Sequence record: AP012530 | Strand: one strand, 5' to 3' | DNA: 59,872 bases | From: Stx2-converting phage Stx2a_F349 | Shown here: positions 33,001 to 39,000 of the stretch, piece by piece | Layout of the letters: each line of letters opens with the position of its first letter | Position numbering within the stretch: the stretch's first letter is position 1 | Position numbers: made by a program

Positions 33001-36000
33001 GCAGCCCGACGTTCGGGGAGTCCTGCGCACAGTGGGTGTTTGACCTGGTGGCGGCCCTGTTTGGCTCCTACGATGCGCAGACCGGTGTACGCCATATCAA
33101 GGAAGTTTTTATCCTTATCCCCAAGAAAAACAGCAAGTCCACGCTGGCTGCCGGGATCATGATGACGGCGCTGTTACTGAACTGGCGGCAGGCGGCGGGC
33201 TACACCATTCTGGCCCCGACCGTGGAGGTGGCGGCTAACGCCTTCAACCCTGCCAGGGATATGGTACGACGGGACGATGATCTGGATGACCTCTGTCAGG
33301 TGCAGACACATATCCGGACCATCACCCACAGGGTGACGGACACCACCCTGAAGGTGGTGGCTGCCGATCCGAATACGGTATCCGGTATCAAGTCCGTGGG
33401 GACGCTGATTGATGAACTGTGGTTATTTGGCAAGCAGTACAAAGCGGAGGACATGTTACGTGAAGCCATAGGCGGCCTTGCCTCCTGAACCGCCCCGGGT
33501 TTCCTGGAGAGTGTTTTATCTGTGAACTCAGGCTGCCAGATCATCGTTTCCGATGGAAGCATAATAAGCTTTTTCTGCTTCTGCCGGAGGAGTATGGCCC
33601 AGCCTTCCCAGCAATCGTCGATTGTTATACCAGTCCACCCACGTTAGTGTGGCCAGTTCCACTTCTGCACGGTTTTTCCAGCTCTTACGGTGTATTACCT
33701 CCGCTTTGTAAAGACCATTGATGCTCTCAGCCATCGCGTTGTCATACGAGTCGCCTGTACTCCCTGTTGATGCCAGTAATCCGGCTTCTTTTAGTCGCTC
33801 CGTATAGGCCAGTGACACATACTGAGAGCCTTTATCGCTGTGATGGATGGTGCCAGACGGACGACGGGCCCACAACGCCTGCTCCAGCGCATCCAGCACG
33901 AATGTCGTTTCCATAGACGATGAGACCCGCCACCCCACGATGTATCCGGCAAACACATCAATGATAAACGCCACATAGACGAAGCCCTGCCATGTGCTGA
34001 CGTAAGTAAAATCAGCCACCCACAGCTGGTCAGGTCGTTCTGCCACGAACTGACGGTTTACGCGGTCGCCTGCGGCAACGGCTTTCCGGCTGATGGTCGT
34101 ACGGACCTTTTTACCCCGGAGAACACCGGCAAGTCCCATAACCGCCATGAGACGTGCCACTGTACATCTGGCCACCCTGATTCCTTCCCGTAACAACTGA
34201 CGCCAGACTTTACGCACACCGTACACCTGATGATTTTCATCGTATACGCGCTGTATCTCTCTCTTCAGCCAGTCGTCGTGCTGCGCACGGGCACTGCGTT
34301 TATCCGGATGATGTCGCTGTTGCTGACAATGGTAATACGTTGACGGGGCAATATGCAGTTCGCTGCATACCGGTCCGACCCCGTACTGCTCACGCAGCTT
34401 ATCCAGCAGTGGCATCATTTTTTCCAGAGGCGGTCGAACTCCGCCTTCGCAAAATAAGCGGAAGCCTGGCGAAGGATATCGTTACTGCGGCGCAGTTCAC
34501 GATTTTCACGTTCCAGCTCTTTCAGACGCTGACGTTCAGCGCTGGTGAGCCCACCATCACCGCCCCCGGTATCCCGCTCATGCTGGCGAACCCAGACACG
34601 CAGAGTCTCCGGCGTACAGCCAATCTTTGGGGCAATGGAACAAATTGCCGCCCACTGTGAGTCATATTCATCCTGACTTTCCAGAACCATACGAATCGCC
34701 CGCTGACGGACTTCGGGGGAAAAACGAGTATTTTTAGTCATCCTGTTTACCTCTTTCTCAGGGAGTTTAGTCTCCAGGATTTCCGGGGCGGTTCATCCCG
34801 CCCGGAAGGGTTTGTGGTGTATACGACCACCCAGTCGAATGAGCCGCCAGCCGGGGTGTTCAGACAGAAACTGCAGTACGCCCGGGATGTCCGTGACGGC
34901 AAAATTCATGATCCGCACTTTCTGCCGGTGATTTTTGAGCATCCTCCTGAAATGGTGGAAAGCGGGGCTCACCTGCTGATGGAAAACCTCGCCATGGTTA
35001 ACCCGAATCTCGGTTATTCGGTGGATGAGGCTTTTCTGTACCGGGAGTACCGTAAAGCCCGGGAGGCTGGTGAGGAAGCATTTCGTGGCTTCATGTCAAA
35101 ACATGCCAATGTGGAAATTGGTCTTGCCCTGCGTTCTGACCGCTGGGCGGGTGCGGATTTCTGGGAGCAGCAGGGCAGGCGCGTCAGCCTGGACGATATC
35201 CTGCAGCGCGCTGATGTGGTGACGGTGGGGATTGACGGCGGGGGCCTGGATGATCTGCTGGGAATGTACGTGATTGGCCGTGACAGGGAAACCCGCGAAT
35301 GGCTGGGCTGGGGCCATGCCTGGGCGCATGAAACCGCGGTGGTCCGACGGAAGAGCGAGGCGTCCCGGTTTCAGGATCTTGTTGCCTGTGGAGATATGAC
35401 CATTGTCCGGCGTGTCGGGGATGACACGGCGGAAGTGGCGGAATATGTGCGTCGCATTCATGAGGCTGAGTTACTGGACCATATCGGTATTGACCCGTCA
35501 GGGGTGGGGCAGATTCTGGATTCACTGGCGGAAGCCGGGATCCCCGACGGAATTGTGGTGGGGATAAGCCAGGGCTGGAAACTGGGCGGGGCCATTAAAA
35601 CCACCGAGCGCAAACTGGCTGAAGGGGTGCTGGTGCATGGTGACCAGCCCCTGATGGCCTGGTGTGTCGGCAATGCCCGGGTGGAGCCTAAAGGTAACGC
35701 CATTCTTATCACCAAACAGGCCAGTGGACGGGGAAAAATTGACCCGCTGATGGCGCTGTTCAATGCGGTCTCCCTGATGTCCCTTAACCCGGAACCGAAA
35801 AAGAAAGAATATGCGGTTTTTTTCATATAACCCTGTTCACACTGTAACCATCATGAACCGCTGCGGCGGTTTTTTTATTTTCAGGAGGCTGATGTGACTC
35901 TTAAACGGGCCTGTTCCCTGCTGACGGTGAAATCCTTCAGTGAGGATGAACGGGTGATCACCGGGATTGCGTCAACGCCTTCTCCGGATCGGGATGGTGA

Positions 36001-39000
36001 CATCCTGGAGCCGGAGGGCGCGGAGTTTGGCAGTGCGATCCCGTTTCTCTGGCAGCATGACCATTCCCGCCCGGTGGGGCAGTGTACGGTGCGCCGGGTC
36101 AGCGAAGGGCTGGAAATCACGGCAACACTGGTGAAGCCCGTACCGGATATGCCGTCGCAACTGGCTGCCCGGCTGGATGAGGTCTGGGCGGCCATTAAGA
36201 CCGGGCTGGTCAGGGGGCTGTCCGTGGGCTTCCGTCCCCATGAATACACCTTTCTGGACGGAGGCGGACTGCATTTTCTGCGCTGGGAACTGATGGAGGT
36301 GTCTGCCGTCACCGTGCCCGCGAATGCGGAATGCACCATCCGGACCATTAAATCTTACGACCGCCCGTTTTCTGCCGCGTCCGGCAACCGGAAACCGGTG
36401 GTGAAAATCGCATCTTCTGCCGGCGCTGCGGCACAGTCAACAACCGTTTTTCATAAGGAAAAGACCATAATGAATATTGGCGAACAGATTAAAAGTTTTG
36501 AAAACAAGCGTGCAGCGCTGGCAGCCTCCCTTGAGGAGGTCATGACCAAAGCCGCAGAGGAAGGGCGCACGCTGGATGTGGAGGAGGAAGAGCATTACGA
36601 CAACACCGCAGCGGAAATCCGTCAGGTGGATGCGCACCTGAAGCGCCTGCGTGAACTGGAAGCCGGTAAGGCCGCCACGGCGCAGCCGGTGAAACAGGCC
36701 GGTAACGGGAATGTGGCCGCGGTGGCTTCTGCGCCGGTGATCCGTGTGGAGCAGAAACTGGATAAGGGGATTGGCTTCGCCCGCTTTGCCAAATCGCTGG
36801 CTGCGGCTAAAGGTGTCCGCTCTGAAGCCCTGGAAGTGGCCCGTCGTCAGTATCCGGATGACAGTCGTCTGCATCATGTCCTGAAATCGGCAGTGGGCGC
36901 GGGGACCACCACGGATCCGCAGTGGGCAGGCAGCCTGTCTGAATATCAGGAATACGCACAGGACTTTATTGATTACCTGCGTCCTCAGACCATTATCGGG
37001 CGATTTGGTCAGGGCGGGATCCCTGCACTTCGTCAGGTGCCGTTCAATATCCGTGTGCATGCCCAGGTGTCCGGCGGAGCTGCCGGCTGGGTGGGGGAGG
37101 GTAAGGCAAAACCCCTGACGAAGTTTGATTTTGAATCCATCACCTTCAGTCATGCGAAGGTGTCGGCCATTGCGGTACTGACGGAAGAATTGATCCGTTT
37201 TTCCAGTCCGGCTGCTGATGCACTGGTCCGTAATGCGCTGGCGGAAGCGGTGGTGGCGCGTCTGGATACAGACTTTGTGGACCCGAAAAAAGCGGCGGTG
37301 GCAGATGTCTCCCCTGCGTCCATCACCCATGATGTGAAGGGCACGGCGTCAAGCGGTAATCCGGATGCGGATGCCGAGGCCGCGTTTGGCCAGTTTGTGA
37401 CGGCAAATCTGCAGCCCACCGGTGCGGTCTGGCTGATGTCCAGCACGAATGCCCTGGCGCTGTCCATGCGTAAAAATGCGCTGGGGCAGAAGGAATATCC
37501 GGACATGACCCTGCTGGGCGGGACCTTCCAGGGGCTGCCGGTGATTGTCTCCCAGTATGTGGGTGACCAGCTGGTACTGGTGAATGCGCCGGATATTTAT
37601 CTGGCGGATGACGGTGGTGTGGCGGTGGATATGTCCCGTGAAGCGTCACTGGAGATGCAGTCTGAACCGGGCGGCGACAGCAGCACACCGTCACCGGTGG
37701 AGCTGGTCTCCATGTTCCAGACCGGCAGCGTGGCCATCCGTGCGGAGCGCTGGATCAACTGGCGTCGTCGCCGTACCGCGGCGGTGGCTGTGATCACCGG
37801 TGTGAACTACGGAACTGCGTCCGGCGGCTGAGTCTGATGAGGAGGGCGGGAGGCGCTAGCTTCCCGCAGTAACTGATGGCAAAAATCCAGTATCTGCAGG
37901 GCACGCATGATGCCCGGGCCGGGGATATCCGTGATGTGGCACAGCCGTGTGCGGAGGTGCTGGTTCGCCTGGGGAAGGCGGAGTACATCACAGCGCGACG
38001 TCCGGCAGGTCAGAAAAAGAAACGTGATGCGGAGCATGGCGAATGTGGAACCTTTTGCGGCGACCCCGAAAAAACCAGAAATCAGGACGTGATGTAAAAG
38101 AGGTGGGCTGGACCAGCCTGTTTCAGGCGGTGGCTGAGCCTTTTGCCGGTGCCTGGCAGCAGGGAGTGAAAGCCGATCCGGAAAGTGTCCTCTCCTTTCA
38201 TGCGGTGTTTTCTTGCATTTCGCTGATATCCCAGGATATCGCCAAAATGCGGCTGCGCCTGATGCAGACCGATACACAGGGGATCCGCCGTGAAAAACGG
38301 CAGGGGGATATTGCCCGTCTCTGTCGTCGTCCCAATGCACAGCAGAATCGTATCCAGTTTTTTGAACTGTGGCTGAACGCCAAACTGCGTCACGGCAATA
38401 CGGTGGTGCTGAAAATCCGTAACTCCCGTGGGCAGATCAAAGAACTGCGTATTCTGGACTGGAGCCGGGTTGAACCTCTGGTGGCGGATGACGGCGAGGT
38501 GTTCTATCGCATCACGCCGGACCGGAACTGCGGGATCACGGAGGCGGTGACGGTGCCTGCCCGGGAAGTGATCCACGACCGGTTTAACTGTTTTTTTCAT
38601 CCGCTTGTGGGGCTGCCGCCGGTGTATGCTGCCGGGCTGGCTGCCACGCAGGGGTATCATATTCAGGCAAATTCAACGTCTTTTTTCAGAAATGGCGGCA
38701 GGCCGTCCGGGGTGATTGAGATCCCCGGCAGTATAACGGAAGAAAATGCGAAAAAACTGAAGAGCAACTGGGACAGCGGGTATACCGGCGAAAATGCGGG
38801 GAAAACGGCGATTCTGAGCAACGGGGCGAAATATAACCCCACGACGTTTTCACCGGTGGATGCGCAGACGGTGGAACAACTGAAAATGACCGCTGAAATT
38901 GTCTGTTCGGTGTTCCGTGTCCCGGCCTACAAGATTGGTGTGGGACAACCTCCCTCCAGTGATAACGTGGAGGCGCTGGAGCAGCAGTATTATTCCCAGT

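Follow-up and report, generated by a model that had tools for sequence, protein, structure and literature searches.

The DNA analysed here, called the window, is a stretch of 59,872 nucleotides from Stx2a_F349, a phage that converts its host to production of Shiga toxin (Stx) 2 (record AP012530). Its head module includes, on the plus strand at 35894-37831, a gene with a GTG start and a TGA stop that encodes, in 645 residues, a prohead protease, a linker, a delta domain and a major capsid protein (MCP) as one polyprotein. We describe this gene and its family, and more specifically a candidate internal translation start at Met193, from which a shorter delta-MCP product may be made alongside the full-length one.

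One reading frame for protease and capsid protein

A preliminary description of this DNA had presented the gene as a single open reading frame (ORF) of 645 residues, which the ORF listing and a translation that is stop-free throughout confirm. The full-length product has a strong Shine-Dalgarno (SD) sequence, AGGAGG (35883-35888, plus strand), 5 nt before the GTG, with an anti-SD duplex energy of -10.3 kcal/mol, and this AGGAGG, together with the T-run that precedes it, is kept before the full-length start in enterobacterial homologs. The start codon itself is GTG in the Escherichia coli lineage and ATG in 70 of 75 scored sequences, the window being included in the count. A terminator-like GC-rich hairpin (35855-35872), which with its T-run occupies 35855-35882, directly precedes the AGGAGG, between the gene for the large terminase subunit (TerL) and the head gene; terminator-like sites around the fusion gene are no more numerous than expected by chance.

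Relatives of the gene were located by scanning one genome per species with a 12-sequence alignment as query, which gave 241 places encoding a relative. The best 80 of these, with 39-77% identity and from gamma-, alpha- and beta-proteobacteria and some other phyla, form the locus set, of which 79 were usable. This set bears on whether the ORF could be an artefact or a pseudogene, two adjacent genes having been merged through a sequencing error or a recent mutation. Two genes split by a single in-frame stop do occur in rare relatives. Several finished, independent E. coli O157:H7 genomes, however, carry the ORF at 100% identity, and of 5426 complete E. coli genomes 1255 contain the gene, with as many as 7 copies in a genome. 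The protease-MCP gene is a single ORF in 92 phage records, and 76 of the 79 usable diverged loci have the entire match within a single ORF of 633 residues or more, uninterrupted by stops. The hidden frameshift or stop that the preliminary description had named as fatal to its reading is thus absent, and a merging artefact, to which we give practically no credence, is ruled out.

The domain content is also as described before. Both Peptidase_S78 (formerly U35) and Phage_capsid score above their curated Pfam cut-offs. The protease domain comprises residues 1-163 (35894-36382, plus strand), as delimited by the Pfam match, invariant residues and a structural model. PF04586 (Peptidase_S78) matches residues 48-152 with 34.7 bits against a cut-off of 21, and the NCBIfam model TIGR01543 (proheadase_HK97) gives 46.4 bits, under its cut-off of 59, which suggests a member of the S78 family that is yet no equivalog of HK97 gp4. 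Among 58 sequences with 37-78% identity, His55 (36056-36058, plus strand), Ser110 (36221-36223, plus strand) and Ser137 are invariant; the first two would be the counterparts of HK97 gp4 H65 and S114. Residues 1-165, modelled separately, reach a predicted local distance difference test score (pLDDT) of 87. The best Foldseek match of this model is T4 gp21, followed by herpesvirus assemblins, and these together make up 16 of the top 17 matches, with weak E-values (7e-3), probabilities of 0.99-1.0 and template modelling scores of 0.45-0.51. Neither a single-sequence nor a profile search returned a solved structure of a close relative, the structural matches being at fold level. The N-terminal region of about 170 residues, previously called a U35-type protease, does belong to the S78 family of serine proteases (HK97-type, assemblin-fold), with invariant His55 and Ser110, its activity being assigned by homology.

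With 58 sequences as its basis, an AlphaFold model of the full-length protein reaches a mean pLDDT of 82. From the N-terminus, it comprises a beta-rich domain at about residues 1-143 (pLDDT about 90), a weakly predicted helix at 149-163 and disorder at 164-190, then a helical hairpin with long helices at 195-223 and 229-262 (pLDDT 93-95), disorder at 267-283, three short helices at 293-331 and finally the capsid fold. The disordered linker, residues 164-192 (36383-36469, plus strand), has pLDDT values below 50 over residues 164-190 and is the most variable, indel-rich stretch of the family alignments. Inside this hypervariable stretch, about 15-20 residues before Met193, a (P/A)G(A/V)(S/T)(G/A) motif is kept, seen in the window as AGAA at residues 176-179 (36419-36430); purely as speculation, cleavage there could release the protease. 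A programmed frameshift at the junction, by which free protease would be made, was also considered and rejected: a reading of the linker codons (36383-36469) showed no zero-frame X_XXY_YYZ heptamer.

The delta (scaffolding) domain, as judged from the model and a profile match, covers residues 193 to about 331 (36470-36886, plus strand), with its C-terminal boundary placed approximately. The earlier suggestion of a coiled-coil delta region is borne out by the hairpin at 195-262 and by a profile match of residues 195-264 with residues 4-73 of the EcCI2 capsid protein (9gyi_B). The predicted mature capsid protein, about residues 332-645 (36887-37828, plus strand), likewise has the HK97 fold attributed to it, on the evidence of Pfam, TIGRFAM and Foldseek: PF05065 (Phage_capsid) matches residues 386-635 with 53.7 bits (cut-off 24.2), TIGR01554 (HK97 major capsid protein) matches residues 204-584 with 78 bits (cut-off 27.5), and Foldseek retrieves the capsid proteins of Bxb1, R4C, D3, HK97 and T5 with E-values of 6e-15 to 1e-9. 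A profile search of the PDB sequences also finds the Bxb1 capsid, at 1e-17.

The starts of homologous mature or solved chains would place the end of delta, and thus the cleavage, at about residues 331-350. In these alignments, residue 3 of the R4C chain is opposite profile position 345, residue 55 of the Bxb1 chain opposite position 385 and residue 237 of T5 pb8 opposite position 409, the mature T5 protein starting at residue 160. A weak alignment with HK97 sets its residue 116 against query residue 362. A low-confidence loop contains a conserved K331-(S/A)-A-V-x-A-G-T-T motif reminiscent of the K103/S104 site of HK97, and a cut at K331/S332 is our guess by this analogy.

The gene itself is not new: the protease-MCP fusion is real, already annotated, published and widespread. 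It matches PHROG 617 ('major head protein', 626 positions) with 869.5 bits and E = 3.5e-261, residues 1-639 aligning with positions 7-626. The NCBIfam model for a prohead protease/major capsid protein fusion protein (NF045541, scaf_prot_MCP2) gives only 54 bits against a cut-off of 525, a score that sets the window gene in a different fusion lineage. The gene of Stx2-converting phage 1717 is 99.9% identical, and 91 further phage records, which include 2851, BP-4795, YYZ-2008 and many Stx1a, Stx2a and Stx2c phages, are 95-99.8% identical. In the Pankowvirus Stx phages 1717, 2851, BP-4795, YYZ-2008 and other long-tailed ones, the same gene (95-99.9%) is located between the large terminase and the portal without substantive difference, except that the neighbouring TerL of the window is broken by IS629. 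The ORF is a true polyprotein gene for head assembly and belongs to a long-tailed Shiga-toxin prophage of the 1717/2851 type, genus Pankowvirus. Depositors have labelled the 1717-type gene 'major head protein/prohead protease', and the Prokaryotic Genome Annotation Pipeline (PGAP) only 'phage major capsid protein'. A different gene, the scaffold-protease protein of other phages, is what a paper on the cyclic oligonucleotide-based antiphage signalling system (CBASS) calls a 'prohead protease fusion protein', and we set it aside.

Beyond E. coli, relatives with 73-78% identity occur in Salmonella, Enterobacter, Klebsiella, Serratia, Pantoea and others, with 643-650 residues and both Pfam domains. 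An exhaustive HMMER search gives 1173 clusters (50% identity) at E <= 1e-30, and the top 150 family representatives nearly all have 630-680 residues and cover query residues 1-640. The preliminary description had called a single fusion gene before the portal gene an unusual head-module arrangement. The position is correct, with the portal at 38043-39407 (Pfam Phage_portal, 1.4e-80), and it departs from the HK97 and lambda order, but it is normal for the lineage. In the locus set, TerL is upstream in 59 loci and the portal downstream in 72, and Pseudomonas phage PAJU2, which has another host and belongs to another genus (Detrevirus), has the same order as the window: TerS (the small terminase subunit), TerL, fusion, small ORFs, portal, a further ORF, head-tail adaptor and head closure protein. 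Its ORF003, 'prohead protease fused capsid protein', is 48% identical over the full length. The order of TerL, fusion and portal is a trait of the family and no peculiarity of the window.

HK97 gp4 and gp5 share with the window gene the S78 protease, the capsid fold, an N-terminal delta scaffold, removed in HK97 and presumably in the window phage too, and the K169 and E363 positions. They differ in being two genes, in the order portal, protease, MCP, whereas the window has the fused pair before the portal. The HK97 protease is targeted non-covalently, while that of the window is covalently joined, and delta has 102 residues in HK97 compared to about 139 in the window. Actinobacteriophages of clusters AM, AU, AN, EE and EL, and Rhodococcus phage RRH1, have a 'major capsid and protease fusion protein' (PMC5513430, PMC7302621). 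These share the idea of protease, scaffold and HK97-like capsid in one gene and belong to other lineages than the window gene, so the fusion appears to have arisen more than once.

A candidate internal start at Met193

Met193 (ATG, 36470-36472, plus strand), which on its conservation we propose as the start of a delta-MCP of 453 residues, is the first residue of the delta domain and follows immediately on the most variable part of the protein. An SD-like TAAGGA (36454-36459, plus strand) lies 10 nt upstream of this ATG, as recognized from its sequence and duplex energy. Met193 is invariant in 20 relatives. At the DNA level, the counts cover 80 sequences, the window and the 79 loci. In all of them the homologous codon, 6-8 codons before a conserved EQI, is a possible start codon: 74 have ATG, 3 have GTG and 3 have TTG. 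Among the full-length family representatives, 118 of 136 (87%) have Met at this site, compared to 16% expected by chance, and the others mostly have Val or Leu.

The conservation extends to the region upstream. Purines make up 94-97% at positions -12 to -9, and an SD core is found at -17 to -5 in 74 of the 80 sequences. Enterobacteria have AAAGGAAA as the motif, and many alpha-proteobacteria and pseudomonads have AAGGAGGG or GAGGAGGG. The latter two reach duplex energies as low as -12.6 kcal/mol, which places them among the best 0.5% of positions of the gene concerned; close Pseudomonas relatives in the locus set, with GAGGAGGG at -12.3 kcal/mol, have a far stronger internal SD than the window. 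The residues encoded by these motifs vary (KEG, EEG, QEG, KGK, KEK), and codon phase and distance shift with indels, which points to selection on the nucleotides and not on the amino acids.

The mean anti-SD duplex energy is -7.4 kcal/mol at the internal start, compared to -2.7 kcal/mol at other in-frame ATGs, and the internal SD and the one at the annotated gene start are indistinguishable in strength (-7.58 and -7.54 kcal/mol, respectively). The mRNA is also more open here. In 90% of the loci, the 40 nt around the internal start are folded less stably than the rest of the gene (mean z = +1.2), and around Met193 of the window the folding energy is -2.3 kcal/mol, against a gene mean of -10.5 kcal/mol.

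Some relatives have the two parts unfused, and their capsid genes begin at the same place. In the Ignatzschineria locus, the capsid gene begins at the Met193 equivalent, with an in-frame TAA five codons upstream that lies within a TAAGGA, and in two Sphingopyxis loci it begins there too, with an in-frame TGA 18 codons upstream. Burkholderia phage vB_FUBS1, in which the same module has one gene for the protease and another for the capsid protein, starts its capsid protein at the Met193 equivalent, and five family representatives that consist of the capsid part only begin at query residues 193-196.

Proposed nested products and rival readings

On balance we think it likely that the gene specifies two nested in-frame products, protease-delta-MCP and delta-MCP, which are co-assembled and then processed. 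The late mRNA would be translated from two in-frame starts, GTG 35894 leading to the protease-delta-MCP of 645 residues and ATG 36470, with its own SD, to the delta-MCP of 453 residues. Since both would share the whole delta-MCP part, they would co-assemble into the procapsid, and this would tether a sub-stoichiometric number of protease domains to the inner side of the shell without a separate targeting signal. After assembly, the protease would remove the delta domains and itself, with a cut probably near residues 331-350, which would leave a mature capsid protein of about 300-314 residues. The GTG codon of the full-length start could lower the share of the protease-bearing product. In evolutionary terms, a protease gene and an MCP gene would have lost the stop between them while the start of the capsid gene was kept and stayed in use. 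A separate transcript for the short product was considered and rejected: there is no sigma-70-like promoter in 35700-38100, and we therefore propose internal translation initiation.

This modifies what the preliminary description had concluded, namely that the capsid precursor, as one gene product, processes itself. One gene with a single ORF stands, and processing of the precursor by the protease is to be expected by homology, but a single product is probably an incomplete account given the conserved internal ribosome-binding site (RBS) and start at Met193. We are inclined to extend the nested arrangement to the whole family of proteobacterial prophages (1173 clusters), in which a conserved internal RBS would yield delta-MCP alongside protease-delta-MCP, so that the protease would be covalently attached to a minority of the subunits.

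The principle is known from other viruses. In lambda C/Nu3 and herpesvirus UL26/UL26.5, nested in-frame genes give a long protease-bearing protein and a shorter, C-terminally identical assembly protein. As in our model, the two products jointly set the protease dose of the procapsid, and as in these gene pairs, the window gene has an in-frame start with its own candidate RBS (ATG 36470, TAAGGA) at the boundary between the protease and the assembly domain. The shared part in lambda and the herpesviruses is a free scaffold, whereas in the window the scaffold is fused to the capsid protein itself; moreover, the herpesviruses use a separate transcript, while we propose internal initiation on the same mRNA. 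A further example of a nested protease/scaffold arrangement is that of ostreid herpesvirus 1 (OsHV-1, PMC11565193). By this analogy, the window gene is rather probably a bacterial-virus counterpart of UL26/UL26.5 with the capsid protein as the shared module. Our literature search found no description of nested products for the protease-MCP fusion family; the reading refines the known picture along an established principle and can be tested.

If true, the nested starts would answer how the ratio of protease to capsid protein is set in fusion genes, and would define a compact one-gene cassette for the assembly and maturation of an HK97-type shell, of interest for engineered protein cages. Since roughly one in four complete E. 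coli genomes carries the gene, as do O157:H7 Shiga-toxin phages, correct annotation matters, all the more as PGAP names it 'phage major capsid protein' only and the neighbouring portal is called 'frameshifted'.

Several observations weigh against nested products. The TAAGGA of the window is moderate, its -6.2 kcal/mol being equalled by 15% of the codon positions in its own gene, and in enterobacteria the internal SD has about -5.6 kcal/mol compared to about -9 to -10 kcal/mol at the full-length start, so an excess of the short product is not assured in these members. The p-values, such as the p = 2e-14 for the difference between the internal start and other in-frame ATGs, are overstated because the compared loci share ancestry. 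The flexible linker is rich in Lys, Glu and Gly, and would thus be purine-rich for protein reasons too, and our literature search found no proteomic, N-terminal-sequencing or ribosome-profiling data on the products of the family, yielding only descriptions of the analogous actinobacteriophage fusions and the PAJU2 annotation. The main alternative is a single product of 645 residues, in which each capsid subunit has its own protease (1:1) that removes itself and delta after assembly. We see this as possible, though doubtful. The continuous ORF, the strong AGGAGG at the full-length start and the modest internal SD of the window all suit it; the comparable actinobacteriophage fusions are described as one gene with no internal start mentioned (PMC5513430, PMC7302621); and about 415 copies of the 31-kDa protease-plus-delta moiety would, by a rough estimate, fit a T=7 procapsid. 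The internal ATG and SD would in that case be unused relics of a two-gene ancestor, or a result of linker composition, an explanation about which we are equally hesitant. An unused start and SD would not be expected to survive where the protein varies most and indels are frequent. Yet all 80 sequences retain a start codon, the six substitutions being GTG or TTG without exception, and 74 retain the SD even as the encoded residues change; the SD is also as strong as that of real gene starts, in a region of low mRNA structure.

The SD-like motif might also, with no initiation, serve to pause translation or signal folding between the protease part and the capsid part, which would be in line with its position exactly at the domain boundary, within a disordered linker. 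Nevertheless, a pause signal leaves the start codon at a fixed distance unexplained, with Met in 87% of representatives and replacements restricted to GTG and TTG, and likewise the start of the capsid genes of unfused relatives at the same place. SD-induced pausing is itself disputed, and we consider this reading improbable.

Cross-link residues and neighbouring genes

The residues corresponding to the HK97 cross-link triad (K169, N356, E363) were mapped with hhalign, whose alignment to the HK97 sequence is weak. In the window (plus strand), K406 (37109-37111) aligns with K169, G611 (37724-37726) with N356 and E618 (37745-37747) with E363, so the full K-N-E triad does not occur. Of 109 relatives with 70-78% identity, 107 have the triad, as do 121 of the roughly 136 family representatives and 74 of the 80 sequences compared at the DNA level; sequences without its Lys have mostly lost the Asn and Glu too. 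The E. coli Stx-phage lineage, including the window, has Gly at the position of HK97 N356, and some members also have Arg for Lys. The protease-MCP family thus probably forms an isopeptide chainmail of the HK97 type, and the substitutions suggest that this covalent chainmail has been lost in the E. coli Stx-phage lineage.

Upstream of the fusion gene, the TerL gene (32856-35830, plus strand) is split by IS629 into an ATPase part (TerL_ATPase, 32856-33488) and a nuclease part (TerL_nuclease, 34814-35830). The insertion (33486-34795; 1310 bp, with a 3-bp target duplication), delimited by alignment to an intact prophage, is 100% identical to annotated IS629, and its transposase genes orfA (34415-34741) and orfB (33528-34418) are on the minus strand. 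A prophage of strain FRIK2455 that is otherwise 99.99-100% identical has an intact TerL of 1662 nt. The prophage copy in the window is probably unable to package DNA.

Downstream, the portal gene (plus strand) encodes 454 residues and is followed, with an ATGA overlap, by an ORF of 407 residues (39404-40627) that contains repeats. The PGAP and DDBJ records annotate the two together as one 'frameshifted portal pseudogene'. Homologs of the 407-residue ORF follow the portal in 63 loci, and in 58 of these 63 the two are separate ORFs in different frames, mostly joined by a short stop/start overlap (ATGA, TGATG or 8-17 nt). The 'frameshifted portal' is probably two genes, which by their junctions look translationally coupled, and neither a pseudogene nor a programmed frameshift. 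The 407-residue protein has about 3.5 tandem repeats of about 54 residues (162 nt), DDV[RH]PMLEQMVKEAVSHIPVPRDGRDYDPDVLQKAVNDAVAKIPVPADGKSITP, at about 39569-40161, and its C-terminal globular part contains '...GDTVTWGGSLWHC...'; no significant Pfam family was found for it. Between the capsid and portal genes, an ORF of 73 residues (37876-38097) matches PHROG 829 (unknown function) at 1.4e-38; 14 enterobacterial loci have it at the corresponding place, and small ORFs are found there in PAJU2 too.

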